A DNA stretch of 64,000 bases from the NCBI GenBank assembly GCA_032718475.1, contig JAUCBJ010006459.1, forward strand, positions 1-64,000, written 5' to 3'. The translations under genes were made by a program, and so were the position numbers. The notes beneath the pieces were generated by a model that made no database searches, was not told the DNA's origin, and saw only the letters and a program-made list of their open reading frames with translations. The DNA comes from Nemertoderma westbladi. Taxonomy: Eukaryota; Animalia; Xenacoelomorpha. Of this stretch, positions 7,926-62,889 are shown piece by piece. Within the stretch, counting starts at the first letter, position 1; every line of letters begins with the position of its first letter.

Positions 7926-7944
7926 AAAATTACTGGAAGCAAAA

Positions 7945-12297: not shown

Positions 12298-12365
12298 GTA
12301 ACTAAATCAGCTGCCGCCCTAGATAAACTCAATAATCAACTAGCACCGAAATCTGCAGAAGAGAG

Positions 12366-18616: not shown

Positions 18617-18742
18617 TATAGAATTATATTCCCTAAATGCCGTGGATTTTCAAAATTTGATTTTATTCGGATTAACTTTGTAAAGATTGCTTTGAGTTCT
18701 CATTCGTATTGGTTCTATCATTTGTACATCTATCGGTCAAGT

Positions 18743-18829
18743 GGTTCAGTAGCTCAGTCGGTAGAGCGTTGGAAATTATATGTGTAGTAGGTGTTGAGTT
18801 CGAATCCTAGTAAGTGCGAATTATTTTTT
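18743..18829 (+). ncRNA. tRNA-like Pol III cassette in U3 of the A 5' LTR
   Basis: TAGCTCAGTCGGTAGAGC (A box and D arm), GAGTTCGAATCC (B box, 18796-18807) and T6 at 18824-29. There is no acceptor stem or normal anticodon arm. Confidence 0.7.
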
Positions 18830-18879
18830 GTACAGAATTTCAACTCATTTAAATTAACCGCTACAAATTAATTGCATTT

Positions 18880-19060
18880 ATCTGTACCAATGAGACTGTA
18901 GTTATTTGATTGTAACCAATGTCGTGCAAGTTATATATTAGCTGGACCAATAGCTATCTTTAAAACCCCGTTAGAACCCATAGAACAATCGAGAATTTTC
19001 TCGATTGATTGCGGCACAAATTTGCTATATAAAGGTGCGATTTGTTCATTAGTTATTCAC
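18880..19060 (+). promoter_or_regulatory. Pol II promoter of LTR A: three CCAAT boxes, HSE-like palindrome, TATATAAA at 19026-33
   Basis: CCAAT at about 18887, 18916 and 18947; CAATCGAGAA-TT-TTCTCGATTG at 18986-19007; TATA box followed by TTAGTT about 20 nt downstream. Confidence 0.65.
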
Positions 19061-21340
19061 TTCTACTTCACAGATTATCTTATCAATATTCTGTTGTGCT
19101 TAGTTTATTTCAGATTACATTGTACATATTATTATAATCTTCTGTAATAAAGTCAGAATATTCTCTCAGCTTTTCTATCTGTTTTACTATGGATTCACTA
19201 CGGTGAACTAACTCAGGGACAGGATGGCCGGCTAGAGATCGGGCCGCAGCAATGAACGGGAACATCACGGGAATGTAGACGAGAGACAACCCGCAATACC
19301 ATTTAGAGTTATTCGCCCATCGCCTGAAAGGTTAGACAGCGTTCGATCCTTGCTACCTAAGTGTAAGACCAAAAGATCAAAAGGTAGACGTAGTGACACG
19401 CTGTAAGCCCAAAATTACATCATAGGGACTGTACTGTCTTGATTCAGGAAAACCCACAGTAGACCTTCACATTCCTACGGGGGGGGGGAGAGAGAGCGCA
19501 GGCAGATACTAGTACGCAGATAGGACGTAGGCACACCGGTACAAGGCATACACATTGGTTAGGGTGCAGCAAACTGTACGCTTAACTCTTGCTAAGTACA
19601 GGTGCGTGTGCGACTATTTGCAGTACGACAGTGTCCATTACATCAGAACTTGTAGGCTAGGGGGTTGCTGTGTTTTTACCTGAATTGGGATTGTACCGTT
19701 CGGGCGGTAGGGCAGTTTACGTACTAGGCGCAAATAAATTGAGGCTATCAGGGATATACTAACATCTACCGTGTCCCCGCCAACGCCCTAATAGGAAGTT
19801 ACCCGGACTACCTGGGTGACTAAAATTCTAGATAGGAGCCAGGATAGCTATTAGTACCTGTACGCCTACAGTAGTAAACTAACACATCTCTTCTTAGTAT
19901 CAGGGACCTGGTACCTAAAATTGCCGAATTCTGGGCGTAGTATTAACCTTATGCCTGAATTTGAGTCCTGGAAATACGCAAGAGGGGAAGGAACCTTATC
20001 ATTCGTGAGTATTGGACCTACAAGTTACAAAATTAGAATATTCGTAAATGCACACCGTACCCAGTAATTATATATGTGAAGGAGCAAAACTGTTTTGACC
20101 GTTCAGAATTAACACGCGCGTTAGAAATTATTTACACCTCGAAATATATAAAATTAACTTTTGTCCGTACTGTGCTTTGCCCGCTAGTTAGACATCTCCA
20201 AATCTCTGCCTGTACCTAGCTAGCGTCTCTTTGCCCAACCATATAAATCACACCGCGGCAAGGTATACGAGCCTCTTAGTCCGTCAGTGAGTCAGCCTGA
20301 TTTTAGGATTCGCTGCGCGGGATTTTGTTTTATCGAAGTTTGTCTGCTCGTAGACTGTTTTCTGCCTCACCGGTTATAAGAGATCGATACTGCAATATAT
20401 TCGCTTACTTAGTTTATTGTTTTGGTGAGAAGGTCGGATTTATGATTTGATTTACAAACTTTACAGTAGGATATTGCAGGTATTGTTACCGTCTCTTCGC
20501 ATAGTAGGAATAGGCGTATCTCTTCAATTAGTAGGAATATGTTTTACTGAACTACGGTTCGGTAGGACTAAAGTTATTTGAAAATTCTGTATTTTGAGGT
20601 AAAAATTTGTATTTGATTAGCTAAGTGCTAATTTTTTGAAATAAAATTTGATTTGAACCGCGTGTAAAATATTTTTGGAATTGAATACCGGTGTTTTAAA
20701 AGGGTTTAAATACCATATTGTACCGGTACAAAATTTTCGTAAAAGTAAAACCTAACTCTTTTGTTTTTTCAGGATTCAGAACTCATTTCTAGACTGTAAC
20801 GGGAGCAAGACCGTGTTTAGCAAGTTTGGGAGATAGATAACTCAACAACTTTGGTTGGGAAAATCGCGTTTCGTCCGCAACGTTAAAAACGGAAAGGTTC
20901 ACGTCCGGTTTGTATCTGGGAATCTGTTTTTCTGGAGAATTATTGGAGTGGGTGAGTTCGAAAAGTTGCATAAATAAGTTAGGCATTACCGTATTAGTTA
21001 AAAATTATTGTGGGTTCCACTGTCTCAAGTATTTATGCATTCCGTATGATTTCTTTGTTCATTGCTGAATTAGTCCGTATTATTGTATTTAATTTACCTT
21101 TTGATAACGCATATCGTTATCCGAATTATTTGTTATAAAATTGGCCGCTAGGCTAATTTTATTATATACTTATTCCGTGACATTTATTTGCTGTAAAATT
21201 GGCCGTTTAGGCTAATTTTATCCATCTGCTATAAAATCGGCCGGTAGGCTAATTTTATAAGACTGTAATTAGTACCGTTTAGATAAATACGGTAAACTCG
21301 ATACTTTGACACTCACTTTACTTGACTTACAACTACCGAA

Positions 21341-30033: not shown

Positions 30034-30700
30034 TTAGGAGTTTACAAATAGATTTCCACGTACCTGTACACTGTAGTAAGGACAGCGGTGGGATTCCATT
30101 GTCTTTATATGTGAACATTGAGGGTAGTACCCTTATGTGTCACATAGGAGCGGGATTTGTAGGTATAAGAAATGTAATTCTACTTGGAACTCACAATATT
30201 GAGACATTTTTGAAATTTTAGACAATCCATTTGGATTTGAAAATTTTTAAAAATTTTCTCCAGTGAATAGATTTCAGGGTACAGTCGGGTGGAACTTAAA
30301 ATTAGAGAAACAAGAGAGGAAGACTTGCGAGCCTTTCTTAAAAAAAAAATTTTTTAATTAAATTTTACACGGTCTTGTTTCAATAAGTTACGTCGAAATA
30401 GACTCCCCTATATTTATTACTAATTCTTGATTGCTTATTTTCTGATAATAGTTTGGGATCAAAAGGTGAGTATTTTAGACTCACAGCCAGTTTAGCCCAA
30501 ATTCGTTTTTATTTCGGCAAAAAATTTTAGATAAGAAGCAGCGTGTCATTAAAGAAACCTTAGATCTTAGGCTATGGGTAGGAGGTTAGAGCGTTGTCGA
30601 AGCCCAAAGGGCAGACGAAACTCTCACGTCTCCTCACAACTAACTACAAACTCTGTTGTATTCCCTCTAGTAGTAATGATTATGTAACTACACCCTAATT

Positions 30701-33700
30701 ATGGAGAAAGGGATACAAGGAGAGCCGAGATGGGGATATGATATCCAAGAGGAGGCAGCAGCGCCATTCGAAAGATTTGGAGCCAAGGATTATACTATAT
30801 TTGGTATAAAAGAATTATCGGAAAGTACAGCGAAACTCGTGAGAACTAAATATGACTCGAACGTATTAAAGAGAAGGCAAAACGCATTAAACGAAAGAAT
30901 CGAAAGTTTGCGCCAAACCTTCAACGAACTTTACCCGTACGATGCTTTGTGTGATACGGGAGACATTAGCGAAGACCCCGATACTGAAATTAGTCGTTTG
31001 TATCATACCATGCAATACCTAAAGGCGCATGAACCTATGCCCGCGGTACGCGATGAATTCGATGGAATGCATCTTTACAGACGAACTCGAGGGGACGATA
31101 GAGAAACCAAGGAAGCATTTTCAGTTTATAAACTTTATTATCAATGCGGTTCTTGTATGCGCGAACAACGAAATGCGATTCCGATGCGTTTGAATAAGGA
31201 AAATCCCGAACCGATATTGGCGAGGTGTTCGAATCATCAACAACTACGCTACCAGGAAGGAGGGTATCCTTTATCGAATCCATATCATTCATTTGCTATG
31301 ACCGGACCAAAGGCGGGAGAAACTGTCATTTACCCACCTAAGGTTGTTGAACCCGATGTATTTGAACTTACGCTGGACGAGGCGAATCAGTCAACCCGCG
31401 AAAAGAAAGAAGCTCTTAGCCTATACAGAGCCTACAAGGCTTTCGAGAAAGGTGAGATGGAAGAATGGGGTGGAAGACTCGCGAGCCTACCTTGCCATTG
31501 GACGTCACACGATCAAACTTCAGCTAAGGAGATGACACCGGAAGTTTTCGAGAGCATAAACTTTGCTCAAAACGTTATTCAGAGACTACAGATTGCATCC
31601 CCGGAGAGGCCAAGAGAAATGCAACCGTATAGTACTTCAACTACGAAACCATTGAGTACGACACTCAATTTCCCTATTAGTATACCAGTCCGACAGGATA
31701 CGACGTACGAAATACCCATCGTGGATCATCCAGAAATCATTTCAAACTTGGAGTTTCTTCCTGCAGTTGTTTTCAGCGATATGAGTAAGATATATGATTT
31801 ACGTAGACATATTACTCAAAAGGTCGTGCACAACGTTCCACCTCATATTCAAGATTTCAAGGAACTGGATAGAGCTGGTGCCGACATAGCTCCAAGTAAT
31901 CTGAAAGGATATCTAACCAAGACGATTCGTTTATGGATTGGAACCGGAACCTTCGAGTCGGATACAGATATTGCCGCAGATTGGCGAGGTAAGGTTATTC
32001 GTTTCGATGAGGATAAGGATATAGAGAAGATTTGGCAACCTTCGGAAGAATTGTTGGATGAATGGACTAGGACGTTTAGATCGTTTCAGGAAAACGGTTA
32101 TATGTTTTACGATAACGAGGGCGGCAGTCATCAGCAGAGTTTGACTTCTAAGACTATACAAATTAGAGCGGCGGACGGAGTCCTGCACGTTTTCAGTAGA
32201 CAGAGGAGCGACAAACGAATGCCGATACCTCCAGCGAATACAAAGCGACACCATCTTATCACCGATATAGTAAAGAAGATGGACCAAGCCTGTAATATTG
32301 ACGCTAGAATGCTACCGAAGATGGTAAGAAACATGATTTTAGATAAAACTGTTGTAAAGGTTGGATCAGGAGTAAGGGAGGATTTAATTAGCGACTTCGC
32401 CGGCATGACGGACAGCGATGACCGACTACCGACACCATACGTCGACACTCGACCTCTTATTCTGTGGTCTATAGAACAGGGATATTTTCGTGAGTATAAT
32501 ACTCAGAAGACTGGAACTGGATACATTTCCTACCTGTTATTCAATTGGGATTATAAGGAAAATAAGAGAAACAAGTATATTGAAACTTATGGAGAAGGTG
32601 ATACTCCAGATATGAGTGAGTTTGAATCACAGCTTAAATGGAGAGGATGCATGTATTGGGCTATTACGTCACCTCCAAGAGCGGTCTTACAATATTATTT
32701 AGCGATAGAGTCGTCAGTGAATGTTTGCCTAATCGCCGACATTGTGTCTCGGACTCTCAAAAGACATCCACTTTGTCTCGGAGAAGATCATACGTTCTAC
32801 ATGGAAGGGAGAATTCGTACCGACGTGTTTAGACGATTCCTTGAACCCTTCTACAACTCCGACGCTCAGTGTAATGCCTTTACTCGAGCAGGATTTAGCA
32901 TATTTCGAGACGTGTATCTTCGCTGTGCGGGATCTCTTATCGAAAGACCATCTATGTTTACACTGTTACCCAATGAAGGAGAACGTATCGTGGAAATTAC
33001 GGATGAATCACGGCAGACGCGCGCGCCTATCGGTCACCTTGGTGATGAATTCGAAGTAACTACTACGATCGCCGACGATCCTTTAGAGGAACTTCTTGAG
33101 ATAGAAAGGAACCTCCCGAAGAAATCTCAGACGGAGATTCGACAACTTGAAGCAACAGATGCTATAGTTTGTATACAACCTTCAGAAACCTACCAACCCA
33201 TAGACCCAGATGATTACGATTATAGTGTGGGAGGAAGCGCTCGACCGATTGGAGATCTTATATATGAACGAGTGTGGTACCCTGCGAATACGATGTGTAG
33301 TAAATGTGGCGTCGCTGGACATCATATGGCAAAGTGCAGTGGAAAGCACATTACTACGACTCAGCTAATCTGTGGATGGTGTGGGGATCAAGGGTCTCAT
33401 ACCTTTTATACTTGCTGGAGATTTATGGCCCAATGTACTTATTGCAATATAAAGGGACATCGAGCATCTGAATGCCAACTAAGGGACATACCTTATGAAC
33501 ACGAATCTGTAAAACTCGTGAGGAAGTTATTTGATGAGTGGGAAGATTTAGCCGACGAACATGTATCAGCACAAAGAAGACGGTTTCCGTTGAGAGCGCA
33601 TCTCGGATTTTGGGCGGTAAATCCCCAGACGATGATGTCGGAAGGATATATCTCCGCTATGCCCCAATATGACGAACTTATCGAGGTTGTCGATATTTTG

Positions 33701-34426
33701 CCCCACGACAGCGGATTCCGAGTGGTGCGCGAGTATCTGTTACAAATTCACCCGGATAACAAAAACACGTGGAATTTTCAGAAAGTCGTTAATCGGATTA
33801 CGTATGGTGAATTCGATCGTTTCCGAACTGAAAAGCGGAACAAGGGAGCTTGGTTAACCGTCGCATGGGCGTACCGAGCCGCGTTTTACCACAAACGTAT
33901 ACGAGCGAGCGTATTCGAGGAAGAAGAGGTCCTAGAGGCGACAAATATACCAGCCACTCCGGTTGCGCCGTCTGCACGTCACCCTCGGGAGGACGGGCAG
34001 GGTAGGATCATACGGGTCCAAAAGGTGGGCCAACAATTAAAGAAAATTATTAATGTAGAAGAACGCAAAGGAGTTGAGCCGACTATTCGAGTTACTCGGG
34101 ATACGGTATCACTTCCAAGAGAACCAGTAGGAGGGTCGGGACATACACCAGCTGATCAACAGGGGGCGCAAGCTACTCTTGGGTCTGCGTCGTCCGCTTC
34201 TCGCGCGTTCCCAGACGTTCTACCAACTGTAGTGACGACTGATCGGTCACGAGGAATCGGTCGAGGTTTTGGGATGCTAAATAAACGAATTTGCGAGGAA
34301 ATAGTCGCACCGTCTCTCAACGTCCCAAGTAAACCAGTGACTCGCCCCACAAGTCCCATATCGCGAGCAAAGTCACCTGTGCGCAGTTTTCGAGGACGCG
34401 GCAGGGCTCGATCCACTAAGCGATAA
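30701..34426 (+). CDS. Accessory ORF2 of A (1241 aa): DEDDy 3'-5' exonuclease-like domain plus three CCHC zinc knuckles
   Basis: Intact ORF in the env position. FYDNEG (ExoI DxE), LPKMVRNMILDKTVVKVGSGVREDL (ExoII, WRN/EXD-like), YVDT and QYYLAIE (ExoIII-like). Knuckles: CSKCGVAGHHMAKC, CGWCGDQGSHTFYTC, CTYCNIKGHRASEC. Confidence 0.8.
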   Translation: MEKGIQGEPRWGYDIQEEAAAPFERFGAKDYTIFGIKELSESTAKLVRTKYDSNVLKRRQNALNERIESLRQTFNELYPYDALCDTGDISEDPDTEISRLYHTMQYLKAHEPMPAVRDEFDGMHLYRRTRGDDRETKEAFSVYKLYYQCGSCMREQRNAIPMRLNKENPEPILARCSNHQQLRYQEGGYPLSNPYHSFAMTGPKAGETVIYPPKVVEPDVFELTLDEANQSTREKKEALSLYRAYKAFEKGEMEEWGGRLASLPCHWTSHDQTSAKEMTPEVFESINFAQNVIQRLQIASPERPREMQPYSTSTTKPLSTTLNFPISIPVRQDTTYEIPIVDHPEIISNLEFLPAVVFSDMSKIYDLRRHITQKVVHNVPPHIQDFKELDRAGADIAPSNLKGYLTKTIRLWIGTGTFESDTDIAADWRGKVIRFDEDKDIEKIWQPSEELLDEWTRTFRSFQENGYMFYDNEGGSHQQSLTSKTIQIRAADGVLHVFSRQRSDKRMPIPPANTKRHHLITDIVKKMDQACNIDARMLPKMVRNMILDKTVVKVGSGVREDLISDFAGMTDSDDRLPTPYVDTRPLILWSIEQGYFREYNTQKTGTGYISYLLFNWDYKENKRNKYIETYGEGDTPDMSEFESQLKWRGCMYWAITSPPRAVLQYYLAIESSVNVCLIADIVSRTLKRHPLCLGEDHTFYMEGRIRTDVFRRFLEPFYNSDAQCNAFTRAGFSIFRDVYLRCAGSLIERPSMFTLLPNEGERIVEITDESRQTRAPIGHLGDEFEVTTTIADDPLEELLEIERNLPKKSQTEIRQLEATDAIVCIQPSETYQPIDPDDYDYSVGGSARPIGDLIYERVWYPANTMCSKCGVAGHHMAKCSGKHITTTQLICGWCGDQGSHTFYTCWRFMAQCTYCNIKGHRASECQLRDIPYEHESVKLVRKLFDEWEDLADEHVSAQRRRFPLRAHLGFWAVNPQTMMSEGYISAMPQYDELIEVVDILPHDSGFRVVREYLLQIHPDNKNTWNFQKVVNRITYGEFDRFRTEKRNKGAWLTVAWAYRAAFYHKRIRASVFEEEEVLEATNIPATPVAPSARHPREDGQGRIIRVQKVGQQLKKIINVEERKGVEPTIRVTRDTVSLPREPVGGSGHTPADQQGAQATLGSASSASRAFPDVLPTVVTTDRSRGIGRGFGMLNKRICEEIVAPSLNVPSKPVTRPTSPISRAKSPVRSFRGRGRARSTKR

Positions 34427-34499
34427 AAGGGAGGGCAAGGGTGGACGTAAGACTCGTGAGCATTTCTTATGATTTGTGATTTATTTTGAATTATATGTT

Positions 34500-35280: not shown

Positions 35281-37204
35281 TATAGAATTATATTCCCTAA
35301 ATGCCGTGGATTTTCAAAATTTTATTTTATTCGGATTAACTTTGTAAAGATTGCTTTGAGTTCTCATTCGTATTGGTTCTATCATTTGTACATCTATCGG
35401 TCAAGTGGTTCAGTAGCTCAGTCGGTAGAGCGTTGGAAATTATATGTGTAGTAGGTGTTGAGTTCGAATCCTAGTAAGTGCGAATTATTTTTTGTACAGA
35501 ATTTCAACTCATTTAAATTAACCGCTACAAATTAATTGCATTTATCTGTACCAATGAGACTGTAGTTATTTGATTGTAACCAATGTCGTGCAAGTTATAT
35601 ATTAGCTGGACCAATAGCTATCTTTAAAACCCCGTTAGAACCCATAGAACAATCGAGAATTTTCTCGATTGATTGCGGCACAAATTTGCTATATAAAGGT
35701 GCGATTTGTTCATTAGTTATTCACTTCTACTTCACAGATTATCTTATCAATATTCTGTTGTGCTTAGTTTATTTCAGATTACATTGTACATATTATTATA
35801 ATCTTCTGTAATAAAGTCAGAATATTCTCTCAGCTTTTCTATCTGTTTTACTATGGATTCACTACGGTGAACAAACTCAGGGACAGGATGGCCGGCTAGA
35901 GATCGGGCCGCAGCAATGAACGGGAACATCACGGGAATGTAGACGAGAGACAACCCGCAATACCATTTAGAGTTATTCGCCCATCGCCTGAAAGGTTAGA
36001 CAGCGTTCGATCCTTGCTACCTAAGTGTAAGACCAAAAGATCAAAAGGTAGACGTAGTGACACGCTGTAAGCCCAAAATTACATCATAGGGACTGTACTG
36101 TCTTGATTCAGGAAAACCCACAGTAGACCTTCACATTCCTACGGGGGGGGGGGGGGGGGGGGAGAGAGAGCGCAGGCAGATACTAGTACGCAGATAGGAC
36201 GTAGGCACACCGGTACAAGGCATACACATTGGTTAGGGTGCAGCAAACTGTACGCTTAACTCTTGCTAAGTACAGGTGCGTGTGCGACTATTTGCAGTAC
36301 GACAGTGTCCATTACATCAGAACTTGTAGGCTAGGGGGTTGCTGTGTTTTTACCTGAATTGGGATTGTACCGTTCGGGCGGTAGGGCAGTTTACGTACTA
36401 GGCGCAAATAAATTGAGGCTATCAGGGATATACTAACATCTACCGTGTCCCCGCCAACGCCCTAATAGGAAGTTACCCGGACTACCTGGGTGACTAAAAT
36501 TCTAGATAGGAGCCAGGATAGCTATTAGTACCTGTACGCCTACAGTAGTAAACTAACACATCTCTTCTTAGTATCAGGGACCTGGTACCTAAAATTGCCG
36601 AATTCTGGGCGTAGTATTAACCTTATGCCTGAATTTGAGTCCTGGAAATACGCAAGAGGGGAAGGAACCTTATCATTCGTGAGTATTGGACCTACAAGTT
36701 ACAAAATTAGAATATTCGTAAATGCACACCGTACCCAGTAATTATATATGTGAAGGAGCAAAACTGTTTTGACCGTTCAGAATTAACACGCGCGTTAGAA
36801 ATTATTTACACCTCGAAATATATAAAATTAACTTTTGTCCGTACTGTGCTTTGCCCGCTAGTTAGACATCTCCAAATCTCTGCCTGTACCTAGCTAGCGT
36901 CTCTTTGCCCAACCATATAAATCACACCGCGGCAAGGTATACGAGCCTCTTAGTCCGTCAGTGAGTCAGCCTGATTTTAGGATTCGCTGCGCGGGATTTT
37001 GTTTTATCGAAGTTTGTCTGCTCGTAGACTGTTTTCTGCCTCACCGGTTATAAGAGATCGATACTGCAATATATTCGCTTACTTAGTTTATTGTTTTGGT
37101 GAGAAGGTCGGATTTATGATTTCATTTACAAACTTTACAGTAGGATATTGCAGGTATTGTTACCGTCTCTTCGCATAGTAGGAATAGGCGTATCTCTTCA
37201 ATTA
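35281..37204 (+). repeat. 3' LTR of A (1924 bp), preceded by short PPT GGAGCGG; tRNA-like cassette at 35407-35493
   Basis: Direct repeat of 18617-20530. Confidence 0.95.
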
Positions 37205-40614: not shown

Positions 40615-42298
40615 ATGGCGAGTAAGTTGATCAGAAAGAGAAAGGCGGAGTCAGGAGGAAAGGAGATACTGGTGGATTTCACCGAGAGACATCCGGAAGA
40701 GAAGACGAGAGGATACTACGAGAGGTTGGAAAGGGGTCACGCGGCACGAGCGTTGCAGGATCACTTCCGGGAGGCGCACGAACAGCGGCTGGTCGGGACC
40801 TACGGGACCCCGTCGCTAGACAACGCGATCTTCCAACATTTCCACTACGTAGTGAAAGGGGACGAGGCGAAGTTCGGGATTCCGAAGTACCCGAGGGAAT
40901 CACCGAGGAAGGACTGGAAGAGGTTCATAGAGTCCGTCAACAGAGGAGGATATATGATCCTAGATGACGAGGGAACCGTGGAGGACGAAGCGGGTTCGAG
41001 ACGAGGAACGGCAGGGTCGGCCAGGACCATACTCCTACATTTGGCCGCGCCAAATGGGGACATCTTCTTATTCGACCTAGGGACGTATGGGAAGAAGGAC
41101 GGGCCGAAATTAGACCGATTACCGAAAGCGGTACAAGTCTTAGTAAGAGAGAAGTCGACGACGAAAGTGGGATCGGCGATTCGCGAGGACGCGGAGAGGA
41201 TCATCGGTCCGGACGCCACCAACCTCCTGGATATGCAGAAAGTCTTTATGGCTATGACGGCACCGGATGGATTGGGGGTAGTCGGAAACACAGGCCAATG
41301 CGGGGCGGTGGCGATGGGCCAATTATTGGGGCTCGTATGCCACAAACCGATGGACTGGGGGAAGTTTAGGGAAGAATACGGAGCAGAACTAGCGAACTCG
41401 CTAAAGTGGGGAGCGAGACCGGGAAAGCAGGAGGTATATCAATTCCGCAGAGGAGCGATAAAGGTATATCAGAAGCGATATATCCTACAGGAAGACTGGA
41501 TCATGATAAGTTTGCTTAACTTATTTATGACCGTGGTTATCGAGAGGGAACCAGGGGCATTTCTGTTATCGGGATCACCCCTAAGCTACAGGAGAGCCTT
41601 TAAGACGGCCTTTGACGGTCTGGTAGACCACCCGGGGCTGAAGGGTGAGTCGGTATACTATAACAGCCGGCATCTGGTAGACGGGGAGACAGATACACCG
41701 TATCAGAGATGGGAGCAGTTAGAAGCGGATAGACGAGAAGCAAAGGGGACACTACGGACGCGAGTGCGACTGGATGAACGACGAGGAGAAGTTCACAAGG
41801 TTCGAGGAGTGGGCCGACGTCGGGGCCATGACGCGCCAGCGCATGAAGGCCCAGGAGTTTAAGTGGGGTTTCTTCCTTATCAATCAGGAGACTCACATGG
41901 AAATCATAAAGCGGAGGCTACCGTTTACCTACCAAGAGGTAGCAACGGCGGCGTCGTACGCTGGAGTGATGAACACGCAAAGGTATCTGGACAGGTGGAC
42001 GCCAGACAACCGAAGGGAGTTTAGGGATTTCTTGGCGGAGCACGTACCAAAGGCAATGAAAATGATCCTATGGGACGCCACTAGAGGGAGACAACCGGGC
42101 CACTCTGAGGGGCCACCGGCGAAGCGATATCGGGCACTAATAACACCAGCGCCCAAGGAGCCAACGACCGGGATCAGCAGGGAGGTGGCGGCGAAGGTCC
42201 GAAAACAGAAGGCGGATAATGCCAGAGGAACGGTGATAACCAAGAAACGACCCAGGGAAGAGGACGCCAGGGGGAACTATCCCCAGAGGAACAGATAG
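40615..42298 (+). pseudogene. Accessory ORF2 of B: DEDDy exonuclease-like, homologous to A ORF2; frameshifting deletion near 41735
   Basis: GYMILDDEG, LHLAAPNGDIFLFD, RLPKAVQVLVREKSTTKVGSAIREDA and LLDMQ. The second frame resumes with a half knuckle (KQRGHYGREC) and FEEWAD...WGFFLIN, matching A's FDEWEDLAD...LGFWAVN. Confidence 0.8.
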
Positions 42299-47699: not shown

Positions 47700-49331
47700 T
47701 TAATCATACAACTGTAAGATGTCAATTACATATTTAAATTTAATGGCGGTTTTCCATATCCTCCAAAATAAATTACTTCTCATTATCCGCTATACTAAAG
47801 GCTAAAAACAAACTGCGGCATTCTGATTCACATTCAAATGTTTACGTATCACCTGATTTGACCCGACTTCAGTCTGAACAGGCATTCCTTCGACGTAAAT
47901 CAAATCGCGATTCGAACAATGTTGGGCGAAGTTCAGGAGGCGAAACATCAAACCCGATTGCCACCCCCACTGAAAGTTCGGACTCGGAAAACCACTAAAG
48001 GGAGAAAATTCCCGTAATTCAAACCCGCTTGTACAGTGTTGTACTTTTAATGCTCAGTCATTGGGTAACAAACTATTGGATCTTGAACTGTTTTTATCCG
48101 ATTCAAGATGTGACTTAATCGGTATTACCGAATCGTGGTTAACTGATGATATTACCGACGAGATGTTAAGTGGCGATGGGAAATTTAATGTGTATAGAAA
48201 TGACCGTACTACTAGAGGTGGCGGTGTGGTCTTACTTGTTAAAAAAGAAATAATTGCTATAAAGGTTCCCCTAAATAACATGAAGTATGGTAGCGATATT
48301 GAAGTTGTTGCAGTAGATTTACTAAGTAACACTCCATCTCGTGTAATATGTGCATATAGATCGCCATCTTCTAGTATAGATACTGATACCCGTTTTTGTA
48401 AATATTTATCAGATTTATGTGAGGTACAGTACCCAGTCGCACTCTGTGGTGATTTTAATCTCAGACTATTTGACTGGCAAACAAATTCACACCCAGACAG
48501 TCCATTGTATAATCTATTTGCAAACTTTATCCTGGATAATGGTTTAACTCAATTACAGTACAACCCCACACGATTGAGTAGTGTTCTTGATTTGGTGTTT
48601 ACGTCAGATGAGTTATTTATTTCTAATGTTCATGTTTCTGCTGGTTTAGGTACGAGTGATCACGATGGATCAGTATTTTTTAGCATTTTCACCCCGCAAC
48701 CGGAAACTTATGATGACCGCGATTTTTATTATGATTTTAAAAATGCAGATTATGTAAACTTTTCTAGATTTGTTGATAATAATAATTGGGTATCCGAGTA
48801 TGAATCATGTATATCTGTTAATGACTACTGGACAACATTTAGTAATATTTTAAAATCTGGTATAGAACGTTTTGTTCCTCGAATTTTACTGCGAAAGTCA
48901 AATAAGAGATCATATCCGGCTTACGTACGAACTCTTCAAAAAAGAAAAAAAATAGCGTGGCGGCGAAGACACACTGTAGATGGCCAGGCCGAATACAAAA
49001 GGTGTGCCAAAGCAGCTTCAAAGGCGGTTTACCGTGCCGCATGTATTCGTGAAAATAAGATACTAAGTTCTGGTAAGTCGGATGCAATTTTCTCTTACGT
49101 AAATTCAAAGCGTAACAATCGAGCTGGTATTTCCGCTTTTAAGTACAATGGTAGTATTATTGTTGACGATTGCGCGAGAGCTAATATACTTGCAAGTGTG
49201 TTTACAGAAAATTTCACCACTGATGATAATGTTTTGCCAAATTTTACCAATAAAGTATCTTCTAGTGTGCATATATCGAATATAGACTTTTCACCTGTTA
49301 ATGTTTTTTCAGTTCTTCGTAAATTAGAGCC
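47700..49331 (+). mobile_element. CR1/L2-group LINE fragment: end of ORF1 and APE endonuclease part of ORF2, interrupted by A'
   Basis: ORF1 tail ILKAKNKLR...VYVSPDLT. ORF2 has FNAQSL, IGITESWL, YRNDR..RGGGV, YRSP, GDFN, PTR..SVLDLVF and SDHD. It breaks at LRKLE, just before the RT. Confidence 0.88.
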
Positions 49332-51231
49332 TATTGGAAGAGACAGTAACAATACCTGCAATATCCTACTGTAAAGTTTGTGAATCAAATCATAAATCCG
49401 ACCTTCTCACCAAAACAGTAAACTCTAAGTAAGCGAATATATTGCAGTATCGATCTCTTATAACCGGTGAGGCAGAAAACAGTCTACGAGCAGACAAACT
49501 TCGATAAAACAAAATCCCGCGCAGCGAATCCTAAAATCAGGCTGACTCACTGACGGACTAAGGGGCTCGTATACCTTGCCGCGGTGTGATTTATATGGTT
49601 GGGCGAAGAGACGCTAGCTAGGTACAGAGGCAGATATTTGGAGATGTCTAACTAGCGGGCAAAGCACAGTACGGACAAAGTTAATTTTATATATTTCGAG
49701 GTGTAAATAATTTCTAACGCGCGTGTGTTAATTCTGAACGGTCAAACAGTTTTGCTCCTTCACATATATAATTACTGGGTACGGTGTGCATTTTACGAAT
49801 ATTCTAATTTTATAACTTGTAGGTCCAATACTCACGAATGATAAGGTTCCTTCCCCTCTTGCGTATTTCCAGGACTCAAATTCAGGCATAAGGTTAATGC
49901 TACGCCCAGAATTCGGCAATTTTAGGTACCAGGTCCCTGATACTAAGAAGAGATGTGTTAGTTTACTACTGTAGGCGTACAGTTACTAATAGCTATCCTG
50001 GCTCCTATCTAGAATTTTAGTCACCCAGGTAGTCCGGGTAACTTCCTATTAGGGCGTTGGCGGGGACACGGTAGATGTTAGTATATCCCTGATAGCCTCA
50101 ATTTATTTGCGCCTAGTATGTAAACTGCCCTACCGCCCGAACGGTACAATCCTAATTCAGGTGAAAACACAATAACCCTCCTAGCCTACAAGTTCTGATG
50201 TAATGGACACCGTTGTACGGCAAATAGTCACAGACGCACCTGTACTTAGCAAGAGTTAAGCGTACAGTTTGCTGCACCCTAACCAATTTGTATGCTTCGT
50301 ACCGGTGTGCCTACGTCCTATCTGCATACTAGTATCTGCCTGCGCTCTCCCTCCCCCGTAGGAATGTGAAGGTCTACTGTAGGTTTTCCTGAATCAAGAC
50401 AGTACAGTCCCTATGATGTAATTTTGGGCTTACAGCGTGTCACTACGTCTACCTTTTGATCTTTTGGTCTTACACTTAGGTAGCAAGGATCGAACGCTGT
50501 CTAACCTTTCAGGCGATGGGCGAATAACTCTAAAATGGTATTGCGGGTTGTCTCTCGTCTACATTCCCGTGATGTTCCCGTTCATTGCTGCGGCCCGATC
50601 TCTAGCCGGCCATCCTGTCCCTGAGTTTGTTCACCGTAGTGAATCCATAGTAAAACAGATAGAAAAGCTGAGAGAATATTCTGACTTTATTACAGAAGAT
50701 ACAATTATAATACAATGCAATCTGAGAATAAACTAAGCACGACAGAATATTGATAAGATAATCTGTGAAGTAGAGATGTAAGTGAAGAAGTGAACTAATG
50801 AACGAAATCGCACCTTTATATACTAAATTTGTGCCGCAATCAATCGAGAAAATTCTCGATTGTTCTATAGATTCTAACAAGGTTTTAAAGATAGCTATTG
50901 GTCCAGCTAATATATAACTTGCACGACATTGGTTACAATCAAATAACTACAGCCTCATTGGTACAGACAAATGCAATTAATTTGTAGCGGTTAATTTAAA
51001 TGAGTTGAAATTCTGCACAAAAAATAATTCGCACTTACTAGGATTCGAACTCGATACCTACTACACATATAATTTCCAACGCTCTACCAACTGAGCTACT
51101 GAACCACTTGACCGATAGATGTACAAATGATAGAACCAATACGAATGAGAACTCAAAGCAATCTTTACAAAGTTAATTCGAATAAAATAAAATTTTGAAA
51201 ATCCACGGCATTTAGGGAATATAATTCTATA
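49332..51231 (-). repeat. 3' LTR of A' (about 1900 bp, TATAG...CAATA); tRNA-like cassette at 51105-51019
   Basis: Reverse-complement match to the A LTRs, ending about 27 nt earlier than they do. Confidence 0.92.
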
Positions 51232-52103
51232 CCGCTCCATGAAAACAGGATATTATCGTGCATAAAATATACGGTTTTCACCAATAATCAATCAAACTAT
51301 AGAATACTTAGGGCGTACTTACATATTTACAATTAAATTTCAAACAATACTTCCTTTCTACGTAATGATTCGATACAAAAATAATTACAAATTCAAACTT
51401 TACGTATTTAAGGCTTTACTAAGTAAGTACAATATAAATCTAAATTAAATTCACCAATATAAATCTATTGCATCTCAATATTGCATAAATTCAAACAATT
51501 ACAAATACAAATAAATGAAAACAATAAGAAAGGCTCGCGAGTCTTCCATCTACTATTGCATCTCAAATATTGCATAAATTCAAGTAATTACAAATACTTT
51601 CGTACCTAAATGTAGATTGCATAAGTTTGGAATAATTACAAATATGAGTCTTTCTGAGCACAAAATTTTCTATCTATAAAACTTTCTAAATACAAAATAT
51701 AACACTTTACAAATGAAACTATAAGAAAGGCCCACGAGTCTTCCATCTACTCTTACTTTCTATTTCACTGTAAATACAAATACTGCTTATAAGATATAAA
51801 TTGCATAATATTCGGAACAATATAAATTGCATAAGTTCAGAATAATATAAATTGCATAAGTTTTGAATAATTACAAATATAAAATATAAATTCTTACTAA
51901 ATATAAGTCGTACTAAATACAGATATAAGCTGCTTTCTAAATTTCATAAATTCGGAACAATACAAATTGCATAAGTTCGGAATAAGCACAAATATAAAAT
52001 ATAAGTTTTACTAAATTTTCTAAACATAAAACATATAATTCAAAATAAATCACAAAATCATAAGAAAGGCCCACGAGTCTTCCGTCCACCCTTGCCCTCC
52101 CCT

Positions 52104-55100
52104 TTATCGCTTAGTGGATCGAGCCCTGCCGCGTCCTCGAAAACTGCGCACAGGTGACTTTGCTCGCGATATGGGACTTGTGGGGCGAGTCACTGGTTTA
52201 CTTGGGACGTTGAGAGACGGTGCGACTATTTCCTCGCAAATTCGTCTATTTGGCATCCCAAAACCTCGACCGATTCCTCGTGACCAATCAGTCGTCACTA
52301 CAGTTGGTAGAACGTCTGGGAACGCGCGAAAGGCGGACGACGCAGACCCAAGAGTAGCTTGCGCCCCCTGTTGATCAGCTGGTGTATGTCCCGACCCTCC
52401 TACTGGTTCTCTTGGAAGTGATACCGTATCCCGAGTAACTCGAATAGTCGGCTCAACTCCTTTGCGTTCTTCTACATTAATAATTTTCTTTAATTGTTGG
52501 CCCACCTTTTGGACCCGTATGATCCTACCCTGCCCGTCCTCCCGAGGGTGACGTGCAGACGGCGCAACCGGAGTGGCTGGTATATTCGTCGCCTCTAGGA
52601 CCTCCTCTTCCTCGAATACGCTCGCTCGTATACGTTTATGGTAAAACGCGGCTCGGTACGCCCATGCGACGGTTAACCAAGCTCCCTTGTTCCGCTTTTC
52701 AGTTCGGAAACGATCGAATTCACCATACGTAATCCGATTAACGACTTTCTGAAAATTCCACGTGTTTTTGTTATCCGGGTGAATTTGTAACAGATACTCG
52801 CGCACCACTCGGAATCCGCTGTCGTGGGGCAAAATATCGACAACCTCGATAAGTTCGTCATATTGGGGCATAGCGGAGATATATCCTTCCGACATCATCG
52901 TCTGGGGATTTACCGCCCAAAATCCGAGATGCGCTCTCATCAGAAACCGTCTTCTCTGTGCCGATACATGTTCGTCGGCCAAATCTTCCCACTCATCAAA
53001 TAACTTCCTTACGAGTTTTACAGATTCGTGTTCATAAGGTATGTCCCTTAGTTGGCATTCAGATGCTCGATGTCCCTTTATATTGCAGTAAGTACATTGA
53101 GCCATAAATCTCCAGCAAGTATAAAAGGTATGAGACCCTTGATCCCCACACCATCCACAGATTAGCTGAGTCGTAGTAATGTGCTTTCCACTGCACTTTG
53201 ACATATGATGTCCAGCGACGCCACATTTACTACACATCGTATTGGCAGGGTACCACACTCGTTCGTATATAAGATCTCCAATCGGTCGAGCGCTTCCTCC
53301 CATACTATAATCGTAATCATCTGGGTCTATGGGTTGGTAGGTTTCTGAAGGTTGTATACAAACTATAGCATCTGTTGCTTCAAGTTGTCGAATCTCCGTC
53401 TGAGATTTCTTCGGGAGGTTCCTTTCTATCTCAAGAAGTTCCTCTAAAGGATCGTCGGCGATCGTAGTAGTTACTTCGAATTCATCACCAAGGTGACCGA
53501 TAGGCGCGCGCGTCTGCCGTGATTCATCCGTAATTTCCACGATACGTTCTCCTTCATAGGGTAACAATGTAAACATAGATGGTCTTTCGATAAGAGATCC
53601 CGCACAGCGAAGATACACGTCTCGAAATATGCTAAATCCTGCTCGAGTAAAGGCATTACACTGAGCGTCGGAGTTGTAGAAGGGTTCAAGGAATCGTCTA
53701 AACACGTCGGTACGAATTCTCCCTTCCATGTAGAACGTATGATCTTCTCCGAGACAAAGTGGATGTCTTTTGAGAGTGCGAGACACAATGTCGGCGATTA
53801 GGCAAACATTCACTGACGACTCTATCGCTAAATAATATTGTAAGACCGCTCTTGGAGGTGACGTAATAGCCCAATACAATACACGCATCCTCTCCATTTA
53901 AGCTGTGATTCAAACTCACTCATATCTGGAGTATCACCTTCTCCATAAGTTTCAATATACTTGTTTCTCTTATTTTCCTTATAATCCCAATTGAATAACA
54001 GGTAGGAAATGTATCCAGTTCCAGTCTTCTGAGTATTATACTCACGAAAATATCCCTGTTCTATAGACCACAGAATAAGAGGTCGAGTGTCGACGTATGG
54101 TGTCGGTAGTCGGTCATCGCTGTCCGTCATGCCGGCGAAGTCGCTAATTAAATCCTCCCTTACTCCTGATCCAACCTTTACAACAGTTTTATCTAAAATC
54201 ATGTTTCTTACCATCTTCGGTAGCATTCTAGCGTCAATATTACAAGCTTGGTCCATCTTCTTTACTATATCGGTGATAAGATGGTGTCGCTTTGTATTCG
54301 CTGGAGGTATCGGCATTCGTTTGTCGCTCCTCTGTCTACTGAAAACGTGCAGGACTCCGTCCGCCGCTCTAATTTGTATAGTCTTAGAAGTCAAACTCTG
54401 CTGATGACTGCCGCCCTCGTTATCGTAAAACATATAACCGTTTTCCTGAAACGATCTAAACGTCCTAGTCCATTCATCCAACAATTCTTCCGAAGGTTGC
54501 CAAATCTTCTCTATATCCTTATCCTCATCGAAACGAATAACCTTACCTCGCCAATCTGCGGCAATATCTGTATCCGACTCGAAGGTTCCGGTTCCAATCC
54601 ATAAACGAATCGTCTTGGTTAGATATCCTTTCAGATTACTCAGAGCTATGTCGGCACCAGCTCTATCCAGTTCCTTGAAATCTTGAATATGAGGTGGAAC
54701 GTTGTGCACGACCTTTTGAGTAATATGTCTACGTAAATCATATATCTTACTCATATCGCTGAAAACAACTGCAGGAAGAAACTCCAAGTTTGAAATGATT
54801 TCTGGATGATCCACGATGGGTATTTCGTACGTCGTATCCTGTCGGACTGGTATACTAATAGGGAAATTGAGTGTCGTACTCAATGGTTTCGTAGTTGAAG
54901 TACTATACGGTTGCATTTCTCTTGGCCTCTCCGGGGATGCAATCTGTAATCTCTGAATAACGTTTTGAGCAAAGTTTATGCTCTCGAAAACTTCCGGTGT
55001 CATCTCCTTAGCTGAAGTTTGATCGTGTGACGTCCAATGGCAAGGTAGGCTCGCGAGTCTTCCACCCCATTCTTCCATCTCACCTTTCTCGAAAGCCTTG

Positions 55101-55834
55101 TAGGCTCTGTATAGGCTAAGAGCTTCTTTCTTTTCGCGGGTTGACTGATTCGCCTCGTCCAGCGTAAGTTCAAATACATCGGGTTCAACAACCTTAGGTG
55201 GGTAAATGACAGTTTCTCCCGCCTTTGGTCCGGTCATAGCAAATGAATAATATGGATTCGATAAAGGATACCCTCCTTCCTGGTAGCGTAGTTGTTGATG
55301 ATTCGAACACCTCGCCAATATCGGTTCGGGATTTTCCTTATTCAAACGCATCGGAATCGCATTTCGTTGTTCGCGCATACAAGAACCGCATTGATAATAA
55401 AGTTTATAAACCGAAAATGCTTCCTTGGTTTCTCTATCGTCCCCTCGAGTTCGTCTGTAAAGATGCATTCCATCGAATTCATCGCGTACCGCGGGCATAG
55501 GTTCGTGCGCCTTTAGGTATTGCATGGTATGATACAAACGACTAATTTCAGTATCGGGGTCTTCGCTAATGTCTCCCGTATCACACAAAGCATCGTACGG
55601 GTAAAGTTCGTTGAAGGTTTGGCGCAAACTTTCGATTCTTTCGTTTAATGCGTTTTGCCTTCTCTTTAATACGTTCGAGTCATATTTAGTTCTCGCGAGT
55701 TTCGCTGTACTTTCCGATAATTCTTTTATACCGAATATAGTATAATCCTTGGCTCCAAATCTTTAGAATGGCGCTGCTGCCTCCTCTTGGATATCATATC
55801 CCCATCTCGGCTCTCCTTGTATCCCTTTCTCCAT
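52104..55834 (-). pseudogene. ORF2 (exonuclease-knuckle) of A', disrupted
   Basis: Near-identical to 30701-34426, with a GAA>TAA change near 55764 and a 5-bp duplication frameshift near 53880. Confidence 0.92.
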
Positions 55835-56499
55835 AATTAGGGTGTAGTTACATAATCATTACTACTAGAGGGAATACAACAGAGTTTGTAGTTAGTTGTG
55901 AGGAGACGTGAGAGTTTCGTCTGCCCTTTGGGCTCGACAACGCTCTAACCTCCTACCCATAGCCTAAGATCTAGGGTTTCTTTAATGACACGCTGCTTCT
56001 TATCTAAAAATTTTTTTTTGCCGAAATAAAAACGAATTTTGGGCTAAACTGGCTGTGAGTCTAAAATACTCACTTTTTGATCCCAAACTATTATCAGAAA
56101 ATAAGCAGTCAAGAATTAGTAATAAATATAGGGGAGTCTATTTTGACGTAACTTATTGAAACAAGACCGTGTAAAATTTAATTAAAAATTTTTAAGAAAG
56201 GCTCGCAAGTCTTCCTCTCTTGTTTCTCTAATTTTAAGTTCCACCCGACTGTACCCTGAAATCTATTCACTGGAGAAAATTTTAAAATTTTTTCAAATCC
56301 AAATGGATTGTCTAAAATTTCGAAAATGTCTCAATATTGTGAGTTCCAAGTAGAATTCCATTTCTTAAACCTACAAATCCCGCTCCTATGTGACACATAA
56401 GGGTACTACCCTCAATGTTCACATATAAAGACAATGGAATTCTACCGCTGTCCTTACTACGGTGTACAGGTACGTGGAAATCTATTTGTAAACTCCTAA

Positions 56500-59400
56500 T
56501 TATTTACTAGTATTAGGTGGAGATTTGTAGTCTCCAGACTCGTTACGAGTCTCTTCAAGAAGTACGAGACGTTGAGTCGGTCTGTCTACTGTACGACCGT
56601 CAATTGTCCGTACTGTCACAGTCCTTGTCACTCCATCCATAGATGGATGTGTGGCTAAAATTACACCTGTTATCCAGAAGCGTCTTTTTAGATTCACTTC
56701 TGCCAACAGCACGTGATCTCCCGGCTTTAATGCGCGGGTGTTATTATACCAAGTTGTTCTGGCAGAAATAGAGGGCAAATAATGGTTTTGCCATATTTCC
56801 CAGAATTTGTTAGCCAGTAGTTGCGTGATTTTCCACGCTTTTCTACCGTAGCTGTCGCTTTCTATTGGAATAGAAATCGGCGTCAAAGTGGTCGGTGCCT
56901 GCATTAGCAGGTGTGCTGGTGTTAAAGCGAACTGAGATTGTTTGTCATCGGGTACTAATACTATTGGTCTAGTATTTAGTATTGCCTCGATTTCAACAAA
57001 CAATGTTGTCAGTTGGTCGTCTGTTAATATGTGGTTTACTGGAATGACCTTTGCCATGGCTGTCTTTATAGATCTAATCAATCTCTCCCAGACTCCGCCT
57101 CTCCAAGGACTATCTGGAGGATTAAACTTCCAAACAATCTTGTGAGGTTGTAGTTCGTTCGAGATTTGATCATGATCTAATTTCTTAAAGGCTCTAGCAA
57201 TCTCATTCCGAGCACCAACAAAGTTTGTCCCTTGGTCTGAGTACAAGCATTTCACTAGTCCGCGTCTAGCGATAAATCGCCGCAGTGCTAGTATAAACGC
57301 GTTGGTGGAAAGATCCATCACACGTTCAATGTGAACTGCCCTACTGGACATACATGTGAAAATCAGTCCCCAACGTTTTACTAGTATACGTCCACGTTTC
57401 GTATGTATGGGACCAAAGCAATCAATTCCAGTCTCTGTAAAAGGTGGTCTGAATGCTTGAAGTCGTGCTTGTGGTAGTTCACTCATTTCTTGGGTACCTA
57501 TTCTAGAATGTACCTTTTTACAAATAATACACGTACGTGTCACTGAACTTAACGCTTTACTGGGTCTAATCAATACAAATCTTGTACGTAAGTAGGAAAG
57601 ACAGTGGTGTCTTCCAGCGTGTTTCAGATGTAGATGTGCGTCCAGTATCATTGCACGTTGTAGTTCGTGGTGTTGCGGTATTATTATTGGGTACCTAAAG
57701 TTTGTGTTAAAGTCAATGTTTTGAAGCCGAGATTTATGACAAATTAAGCCATTATAAATTATCGGACTCCAACTCAGTATTGGTGACGACTTGATTGGTT
57801 GACCTTGATTTATAGATGTGAATTCGCGCGCGAAATATCGCAGTTGATAATGGCGAATTAATTTAATCTCACATCTGTCAATCTCAGTCAATGTAAGTCG
57901 ACGCGTAAAGTCGCGTTTGCCTTTAACATATTGTACAAAACGTACAATCCACGCTAATTTTCGGCAAGCGCTTGTCCAAGAATCTGTTAAGTTTACAATA
58001 CGGTCGACATGAGTATTTGTGACGTCATCAGGTAAGTCAATGGAGATTTTGGAAGGTTTTGAATTACTAGAAGGGCCCACGGGTCCGCCGGTAGGTATTC
58101 CCTTGTTGACTGTTGATCCGTCGGGGTCTACAAGTAATTTGTCCTTCTTCGTCTTCTTACCTTGATCGTCAGTACTTTGTAAGTCGATCGTTAATGGTGG
58201 TTTGAACTCTATGGGGTCAGCAGGTTTCGGTAAACTTATTTTCCTGCCGACATTAATCCCAGGTCTCACCATAGGTTGCAAGTTCGGTATGTCTCTTGAG
58301 CGCAAAGTAACACCTGTATTTACATTAGCGTAGGTACTACCCACATCTGTAATACATGAGGTTTCACCGTGCTTATGGTTGCTCAAGTGTGTCGAATTTG
58401 GTAGTTTGTCAATACAAGGCCGCTCCAATAGGGAAACTGCGGCTTTATTGTTAGTCGATACATTACTAATGTCCGGTAGAACATTTTGTGATGTTTCTGA
58501 CAAAATGTCTAGTCGACTGTCTAGTAATGTGTCTGGCGATACGTCTGGTAACGTATCTGGTTGTTTGTCAATAGAAGGCCGCTCCAATAGGGAAACTGCG
58601 GCTTTACTGTTTGTCAGTGTGTTACTAGCGTCTGGTGGAACATTTTGTGATATGTCTGGCAAAATGTCTGGTTGGCTGTCTAGTAACATGTCTGGTTGAC
58701 CGTCTGGTAACGTGTCTGGTTGACCGTCTGGCGATATGTCTGGTGTAGAAAGGCTCGCAAGTCTTCCTCTCTTGACCTTTGAAGTTATATCTTTCCATTT
58801 TGCCTTCGGTTTCTTCTTGAGTTTTGCCGCCGTTGTCTTTTTCTTTGTCTTCCCCTTTTTTGGTTTCTTGATTTCGGCGTCCTTTGGGATAGTGTTGGAT
58901 TTGTTGTCGTATAACGGAGGCCAATCTTGTGTCGATTTCTGCAAGAATTGGGGTCCGTGTTGCCAAAATTCTTTGTTCTCCGGTTTACAGAATTCCTCAG
59001 GCATCATTCCTCGCGACGCAATATCAGCTGGGTTTTGTGGTCCGGGACAATGTCGCCAATCCTCTTTTATTGAACGGTCTAGAATTTCCGCGCGACGGTT
59101 AGCTACGAATGTCTTGAATTCGAGTGTGTCGTTGTTTATGTAAAATAAAACCAACGTCGCGTCAGTCCAATAAAATATCTGTAAACTCGACTGTAGTTCT
59201 GTCTGTATGAGGTTCACGATGGTGGTTGGCAGGGTTGCGGCTTGTAGCTCGGCTCGTGGTGTCGTCATATACTTAGTAGGCATGGTCTTAGCCTTAGAAG
59301 TAATGAGCGAAACATCGAACTCGTCTGATTCTACTTGTCTGCGCAAGTACGCTGCCACACCAAAACCGTTGTCACTGGCGTCAGAAAAACAGTGTAGTTC

Positions 59401-62400: not shown

Positions 62401-62889
62401 GATAGCGTTCTTGATCTCGTCAGCTAGTTTTAGTAAGTCGACGGGTTTAGTGATAGCCCCTCCCTTACAGAGTTCCTCTATTACTGACCTGGCCATGCTC
62501 ACTGTACCTCCGTATATCGAAGTTAAACGATCGTACGCTAGTTCGAAAGCGTCTGGTACACCGACGAAAGTCTCCGCCAAACGTTTAGGTTCTCCTGACA
62601 ACGTTTGGAGCAGGTAATTGAACTTCTCCCGTGATGTGAAGGCGCACACGGCGATCTGGGATTCGATATAGTCTACGAAAGTATGCCAGTGTTTTGAGCT
62701 ACCGGAAAACTTCGGTGGTTGTTGTACCGGCAATCCTTGTCTGGCTGCGAATTTCGCTATCTCCTCGGCAACGTTCAGAGTTTCGCGTCCTTGGTTGGTA
62801 ACCAGGTTGATATTCTCCCTTCTTGGCGCTTTTCCCTGATACGATGTGGGGTTTGAAGGTACCGGTCTTTGTGGTTCCTTCGGGTGTCT
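56500..62889 (-). pseudogene. gag-pol of A'; RT-RH-IN portion (61032-56500) open, stops at 62086 and 61045
   Basis: Near-identical protein to A with an intact integrase; CGA>TGA and TAT>TAA changes lie upstream. Confidence 0.93.

Follow-up and report, generated by a model that had tools for sequence, protein, structure and literature searches.

A BEL/Pao retrotransposon of Nemertoderma westbladi (Xenacoelomorpha), here named element A, carries a third open reading frame (ORF3) that is likely an old accessory gene of its lineage, predicted from sequence to encode a 3'-5' RNA exonuclease of the DEDDy type with zinc knuckles as RNA guide. The element was found in a stretch of 64,000 nt (NCBI GenBank assembly GCA_032718475.1, contig JAUCBJ010006459.1, positions 1 to 64,000 of the forward strand), which we call the window. 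ORF3 occupies the position of an envelope (env) gene, as the original prediction had it: it stands between the integrase C-terminus (DUF5641), which ends at 30033, and the 3' long terminal repeat (LTR), which begins at 35281. The features of ORF3 and of its putative messenger RNA (mRNA) are as follows.

30701..34426, plus strand: ORF3, third gene of element A; 1241 aa, intact, under purifying selection
32021..32800, plus strand: DEDDy-like 3'-5' exonuclease domain (about aa 441-700), with D471, E473, D561, Y666 and E670
33296..33475, plus strand: three CCHC zinc knuckles (aa 866-925, starting at aa 866, 891 and 912), aligned in the environmental relatives P0002 and P0003
33503..33790, plus strand: conserved C-terminal domain (about aa 935-1030), unassigned to any known family; it aligns with P0002, P0003 and a second element of the window, element B
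20773..20951, plus strand: leader exon with an acceptor-like start and a donor end G|GTGAGT; exon and both sites are kept in a sister family, family C
30636..30670, plus strand: splice acceptor for ORF3, with a CTAAC branch-like site, a pyrimidine tract and TAG, 30 nt before the ATG

The third gene, its relatives and its expression

The 1241-aa frame at 30701-34426 of the plus strand is present as proposed, and the motifs named for it were all recovered, namely ExoI DNE (aa 471-473; 32111-32119), ExoII KVGSGVRED (aa 553-561; from 32357), ExoIII YYLAIE (aa 665-670; from 32693), the three CCHC knuckles, an N-terminal CxxC at aa 149 (31145) with CxxH at aa 176 (31226), and a basic tail. The motifs go beyond chance, because they are invariant columns among four proteins of only 24-30% identity. 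For the N-terminal CxxC..CxxH no counterpart was found in the relatives (the N-terminal parts of A and B score 27, with a shuffle mean of 30), and a 27-aa insertion separates ExoI from ExoII in the protein of element A. Pfam yields only a weak zf-CCHC match (E 0.025). The claim that the protein lacks a signal peptide and a transmembrane segment is borne out by hydropathy, which reveals no such envelope hallmarks: the most hydrophobic 19-residue window has a Kyte-Doolittle mean of only 1.38 (aa 661-679, in the ExoIII helix) and the N-terminus is polar. Derivatives of element A with the nuclease domain deleted exist as well; contigs of runs X2 and X3 jump from 30839 to 32873 or to 32985, skipping the N-terminal part and the whole nuclease domain and keeping the knuckle region.

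Relatives of ORF3 are few. A phmmer search with aa 301-966 against 1.84 billion representatives gave four matches, two of which, P0002 (558 aa) and P0003 (605 aa), are singletons of the European Nucleotide Archive (ENA) with the full layout of nuclease-like domain, acidic linker, three knuckles and C-terminal domain; they are known from environmental contigs of 7460 and 3001 nt, respectively. The other two, P0001 and P0004, are knuckle-only matches and were dropped as relatives. Another homologue is the third gene of element B, a second BEL/Pao element of the window:

40615..42298, plus strand: third gene of element B, homologue of ORF3 (tblastn E 7e-5), with DDE, KVGSAIRED and YILQED, in a three-frame reading

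The third genes of A and B reach a local alignment score of 89, compared with a maximum of 54 in 500 shuffles. The gene of B is broken near 41720, and most of its knuckle region is gone, leaving only the end of the third knuckle. Its C-terminal domain lies past this break in another frame, and is still recognizable by comparison with A (score 57; maximum of 500 shuffles 48); no Pfam family matches this domain. In both elements the third gene lies between pol and the 3' LTR, while the reverse transcriptase (RT)-RNase H regions of A and B share only 33% identity. The third gene may be an old feature of the lineage, or may have passed between families, and two elements cannot separate these alternatives. 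No related loci were present in the metagenome and viral contigs searched, P0002 has no phage match, and PHROGs gave no match; word-seeded protein searches, even with P0002 and P0003 in the query, found no relatives and are of little weight. When a profile of the family was run against 201 bacterial genomes, 2 matched at E ≤ 0.1, one of them a stand-alone exonuclease by its motifs. Pfam misses the ORF3 family, and such genes have probably been overlooked in annotation.

Selection could be assessed between the two copies of element A in the window. ORF3 differs between them by 34 substitutions, 20 of which are silent, whereas random placement of these base changes gives an expectation of 10.2 (0/5000 simulations). 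The ratio of non-synonymous to synonymous differences per site (pN/pS) is 0.18 for ORF3 and 0.13 for gag-pol, and the pS of ORF3 (0.024) equals the non-coding divergence (0.020 and 0.028). By region, the knuckle and C-terminal part is significant on its own (7/10 silent; 8/5000 simulations). In the second copy, codon 24 of the third gene (52104-55834, minus strand) is a stop and the frame shifts near codon 650, but all five active-site residues are kept. ORF3 is almost certainly a real accessory gene under selection.

ORF3 is likely expressed from its own env-like spliced mRNA. One contig of run X2 contains the joint 20951->30671 with GT..AG ends, at depth 211 and with 29 letters on the short side, and the chance that a random joint meets such a donor-acceptor pair is near 1e-5. 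Together with the conserved signals, this contig is a strong lead rather than proof. The joint is not listed for run X5, nor for X1 and X3, both of which are much deeper. The depth profile of X2 looks like that of a 3'-biased RNA library, a bias that contig depth is unable to establish. Internal priming at an A-rich stretch is not borne out, as no 20-mer with 15 A is present. A three-codon upstream ORF (30676-30687) precedes the ATG of ORF3.

Assignment to the DEDDy exonucleases

The original prediction placed the domain among the WRN/EXD2/RNase D-type DEDDy exonucleases. This assignment gains support at the level of the family, from three weak tests that agree (PDB profile search, Atlas and HHalign), and the DEDDy fold of the ORF3 domain is, by these comparisons, highly probable. 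When A is aligned with B, P0002 and P0003, each 24-30% identical to it, all four proteins have D471, E473, D561 and Y666; at the last acidic position the two environmental proteins carry D and both window elements E. A profile of these four members against 177,635 PDB sequences gave six matches at E ≤ 10, the top three being EXD2 (E 0.033), mouse WRN (0.56) and human WRN (0.6); the alignment covers ExoII (KVG..D) and, weakly, ExoIII. For ExoIII YxxxD, Y is present in 4/4 and D in 2/4, and the alignment to EXD2 there scores only 0.6 bits. In HHalign, the family aligned to 64 bacterial PF01612 domains with a probability of 73% and a score of 38.8, from ExoI to ExoII only (controls: 11.3 for the reversed profile, 17.5 for the best of 40 column shuffles). 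ExoI DxE (D471, E473) falls on the DTE of these references, and ExoII D561 is aligned with that of EXD2 and WRN.

Moreover, a hidden Markov model (HMM) pooled from the 64 domains scores B, P0002 and P0003 each above all of 200 shuffles, and the ExoI of A has a faint DnaQ match in NCBIfam (E 0.027). None of the window proteins, nor P0002 or P0003, passes the Pfam cut-off of PF01612. In the Atlas, PF01612 clusters make up the top three feature rows and all 10 structure rows for P0002, and its first feature match is a euglenozoan cluster of PF01612 + zf-CCHC. Against stand-alone PF01612 clusters, the Atlas model of P0002 has template modelling (TM) scores, taken by target, of 0.73 and 0.70, below the level at which the tool assigns a name. 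AlphaFold models of ORF3 have unusable confidence (predicted local distance difference test, pLDDT, 30 from the single sequence and 36 from the four rows), and fold searches with the four-row model returned helical noise only, which speaks neither for nor against the fold. That the protein is also an active nuclease seems reasonably probable, because proteins of only 24-30% identity retain acids at all four positions as well as the Tyr.

The exonuclease domains of EXD2 and WRN, which supply the best three PDB matches, align at ExoII KVG..D and at the ExoIII helix. Their E values are 0.03-0.6, and ORF3 lacks a helicase or a membrane anchor, possesses extra knuckles and has E as its last acid. 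The TbRND of Trypanosoma brucei, which combines an RNase D domain with four zinc fingers, trims guide RNAs and binds RNA through the fingers, as described in the main text of PMC7797062. It shares with ORF3 the order of a DEDDy domain followed by several zinc fingers, but it is a cellular mitochondrial enzyme and its fingers are four. The likeness is one of layout, not of shown kinship, because TbRND is absent from the PDB profile matches.

The closest precedents on retroelements come from bdelloid rotifers. The main text of PMC5408684 describes DEDDy third ORFs on Juno and Vesta (LTR elements) and on Athena/Terminon elements, leaving their activity and benefit open, and rotifer retroelements with DEDDy genes are also treated in the text of PMC6431247. 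These precedents had been named in the original prediction together with Cer1; the rotifer part holds, while Cer1 has no occurrence in the main text of PMC5408684. Judged by the published description, the ORF3 of Juno, Vesta and Athena agrees with that of element A in being a non-envelope, post-pol, RNase D-like DEDDy gene with no membrane segment and with an altered acidic motif. It differs in that BEL/Pao is not among the four clades of that main text, where 'CCHC' also has no occurrence. Here, in contrast, three knuckles and a C-terminal domain follow, the altered acid is the last one, unlike in the rotifer change DEDD -> DEED, and selection and a splice joint are seen.

Element A can also be compared with Belpaoviridae, with which it shares a gag-pol containing the Pao RNase H family, DUF1759 and DUF5641, LTRs, and a 5-bp target duplication (PMC8742986); it differs by a third gene that is not env-like and by the lack of a tRNA-Arg/Gly primer site (PMC8742986). 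Its 18.6 kb and 1.9-kb LTRs exceed the range given by the International Committee on Taxonomy of Viruses (ICTV) for the family (element 4.2-10 kb, LTR 0.2-1.2 kb; PMC8742986) and lie inside the maxima of 22.8 kb and 2.4 kb for de novo BEL/Pao elements, whose median is 7.4 kb (PMC3118150 supplement 9). A size record for element A was rejected on the same maximum of 22.8 kb (PMC3118150 supplement 9). Captured DEDD exonucleases that serve a parasite in immune suppression or proofreading are also described for arenaviruses and nidoviruses in PMC7968707, but these ExoN domains belong to the DEDDh type, occur in RNA viruses and arose separately.

An exonuclease third gene in BEL/Pao, of which the original prediction knew no case, was not found in the open literature either (Repbase and subscription journals being outside this scope), and 'exonuclease' has no occurrence in the main text of the BEL/Pao survey PMC3118150. 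ORF3 apparently stands for a family of BEL/Pao accessory genes that has not been described before and probably encodes a DEDDy nuclease. The enzymatic cargo in the env slot that the main text of PMC5408684 describes for rotifer Gypsy-type elements would thereby be extended to BEL/Pao. New for DEDDy cargo genes are their persistence in families that are very distant, evidence of purifying selection, and a candidate for a spliced mRNA. With an intact soluble protein at hand, one may ask whether animal retrotransposons encode nucleases against control by Piwi-interacting RNAs (piRNAs) or small interfering RNAs (siRNAs), or how priming without tRNA makes its 3' end.

Possible roles of the ORF3 protein

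In the mechanism that we favour, the spliced mRNA would yield a soluble protein; its knuckles would hold single-stranded RNA and pass RNA 3' ends on to a two-metal DEDDy site, as in the trypanosome TbRND. The benefit to the element would come from silencing RNAs of the host, or precursors of these, being trimmed or degraded. RNA is the presumed substrate because the layout resembles that of TbRND, where the knuckles supply RNA binding, and silencing RNAs are favoured because ORF3 is likely to be expressed separately from Gag-Pol, and because the main text of PMC5408684 places DEDDy genes on rotifer elements with different replication. We put the probability of silencing RNAs as the target at about 0.35. 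In its widest form, the idea is that a BEL/Pao lineage without tRNA priming or envelope carries a knuckle-guided 3'-5' RNase that would be the first retrotransposon-encoded enzymatic suppressor of small-RNA silencing, or a trimmer of the element's own primer; this we hold only tentatively.

Several observations weigh against the exonuclease reading or against silencing RNAs as its target. The nuclease domain alone, with 3 changes between the copies, is not significant in the selection analysis. The splice is known from one contig of one run, which is labelled 'DNA?', with a short side of 29 letters, and the runs include no listed RNA holder. The protein of element A scores 0.4 bits on the pooled PF01612 profile, a value reached by 2/200 shuffles; class-specific profiles (26 stand-alone, 8 PolA, 24 RNase D domains of the reference set) miss it, and taken alone it reaches 3% in HHalign, with no DEDDy match in Pfam and no PDB match at E ≤ 1. 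Even the family-level scores are below the usual bars, and the best Atlas value (0.87, with 158/256 features shared) is a lead only. At the last acidic position both window elements have E, whereas 58/64 reference domains have D. In addition, the 2'-O-methyl end of mature piRNAs resists trimming.

Of the other roles, maturation of a primer or RNA end comes next, and we regard it as doubtful. Reverse transcription would be self-primed, and the exonuclease, packaged through its knuckles, would trim an RNA 3' end to the duplex at the primer site. The features involved are the following.

20531..20541, plus strand: primer-site position of element A, starting GTAGGAAT; no TGG-type tRNA site, first TGG at 20676
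19471..19478, plus strand: candidate self-primer end within the LTR, able to pair with the 8 nt that directly follow the 5' LTR of A

A TGG-type tRNA site is lacking after the 5' LTR of both A and B: an 18-nt tRNA-Arg or tRNA-Gly primer site was not found, with no TGG within 145 nt after the LTR of A and 120 nt after that of B. Pairing between the LTR and the following sequence stops at the LTR boundary in both, over 8 nt in A and 9 nt in B (12298-12306 with 12114-12122), and in family C a candidate pairing of 10 nt (about 5174 and 6440, minus strand) includes one base pair with compensatory changes relative to A. The sequence GTAGGA occurs four times around the LTR end of A, and the two copies of A end ahead of different repeats, the LTR of the second copy ending directly ahead of another GTAGGAAT. 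The match in B is reached by 1/300 resampled LTRs; that in A is weak alone, since 18/300 resampled LTRs reach 8 nt and shifted starts also give 8-10 nt. For C, the position of the LTR end lacks independent evidence, and the 500 positions scanned include a second match of 10 nt. Furthermore, the pairing segments are far from the predicted transcription start, unlike in Tf1, where the primer site pairs with the first nucleotides of the transcript and RNase H makes the primer end. A long G run lies just 3' of the segment of A. A splice-built primer was found in neither A nor B, the LTR of A holds no detectable tRNA gene or Rfam family, and separate expression from a spliced RNA would be an indirect route of supply for an enzyme of the particle.

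The ORF3 protein might instead be a non-catalytic RNA adaptor that uses its DEDDy fold and its knuckles to hold RNA, so that the RNA of the element is localised or shielded, or silencing factors are absorbed. This is consistent with the E at the last acidic position of both window elements and with the 27-aa insertion in A, and Egalitarian and EXD1 are RNA-binding adaptors with a DEDDy fold. On the other hand, dead nucleases usually lose active-site acids or the Tyr, whereas D471, E473, D561 and Y666 are invariant here and both environmental relatives have the canonical YxxxD, so that we consider an adaptor unlikely. The main text of PMC5408684 notes that inactive DEDD derivatives (Maelstrom, EXD1) act in piRNA biogenesis.

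Help on the DNA side, by proofreading of reverse transcription or trimming of complementary DNA (cDNA) ends in so large an element (18.6 kb, ~2.5x the BEL/Pao median of 7.4 kb), appears improbable. EXD2 and WRN, the nearest solved relatives, act on DNA as well. ORF3, however, is not fused to Pol and its three knuckles point to RNA, and the survey that lists BEL/Pao elements of up to 22.8 kb (PMC3118150 supplement 9) does not mention an exonuclease in its main text. No specific observation favours proofreading; primer maturation gains a lead from the missing tRNA site and the self-complementarity. Lastly, a captured host gene carried as a passenger with no benefit to the element is very improbable and already largely refuted: the third gene is broken in 2/3 window copies (B and the second copy of A), the nuclease domain is absent from contigs of two runs (joined from 30839 to 32873 or 32985), and in the main text of PMC5408684 the env-like and GDSL third genes of rotifers appeared to be neutral inside the genome, but pol is broken in these copies too, the splice exon is conserved, and the gene is under purifying selection and retained in families 33% identical in RT.

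The elements and other features of the window

Element A is a young BEL/Pao element of 18.6 kb, inserted in the pol of element B. The two elements and the second copy of A are placed as follows.

18617..20530, plus strand: 5' LTR of element A, 1914 nt, beginning TA and ending TA, preceded by the target-site copy TTGAA
21341..30033, plus strand: gag-pol of element A in the ORF map (Peptidase_A17 E 1e-42, DUF1759 6e-11, DUF5641 4e-22)
35281..37204, plus strand: 3' LTR of element A, followed by the target-site copy TTGAA and preceded by a short purine tract
49331..62889, minus strand: copy 2 of element A, 5'-truncated, 97% identity
11766..43541, plus strand: element B, the BEL/Pao element that hosts A (LTRs at 11766-12297 and at 43010-43541 with TG..CA ends; TTAAA as target duplication)

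Element A spans 18,588 nt with the 5-bp target duplication TTGAA on both flanks, and its LTRs share 99.3% identity, the differences being 3 substitutions and the length of a G run. Contigs of three public runs are joined across its empty site. In this copy the gag-pol frame is interrupted twice, by a stop codon (28970-28972) and by a shift of frame near 29534-29557. The family is rich in divergent copies, with 23,674 contigs of run X1 and 10,081 of run X3 on the element. Both A and B possess the BEL/Pao markers, a Pao-type pol (Peptidase_A17, DUF5641) and a gag with DUF1759. In B, Peptidase_A17 is split by the insertion of A, Integrase_H2C2 and DUF5641 are also present, and the LTRs share 99.4% identity. 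Family C is the sister of A, with 56% amino-acid identity in gag-pol, and its 5' half ends at the left edge of the window.

A few further observations concern element A. Its Pol includes a long basic low-complexity insert with 159-nt repeats (27620-28500) between RNase H and integrase, of which 28 nt (27811-27838) are identical to a stretch in the post-pol spacer near 30311-30338. The 3' untranslated part (34427-35280) contains AT-rich internal repeats and many contig joints fall there. The LTRs are bounded by TA..TA instead of TG..CA, and in the 3' LTR ~1.4 kb follow the first poly(A) signal (35810), with a second signal at 36407. The upstream part of the LTR has a tRNA-like sequence with A-box and B-box (35410-35475 and 18746-18811 in A; ~7345-7270, minus strand, in family C), for which neither ARAGORN nor Rfam made a call; it could be a kept RNA polymerase III (Pol III) or insulator element.

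Elsewhere in the window, element B contains a tandem array of 30-62-nt units between pol and the third gene (39531-40144), and a fragment of a B-related element with 71-73% identity lies at 45036-46805 on the minus strand. A non-LTR endonuclease ORF (47974-49374, plus strand; Exo_endo_phos, E 2e-13) is cut off by copy 2 of A. A minisatellite of ~26 copies of a 36-nt unit (7842-9121) reads as an open repeat frame.

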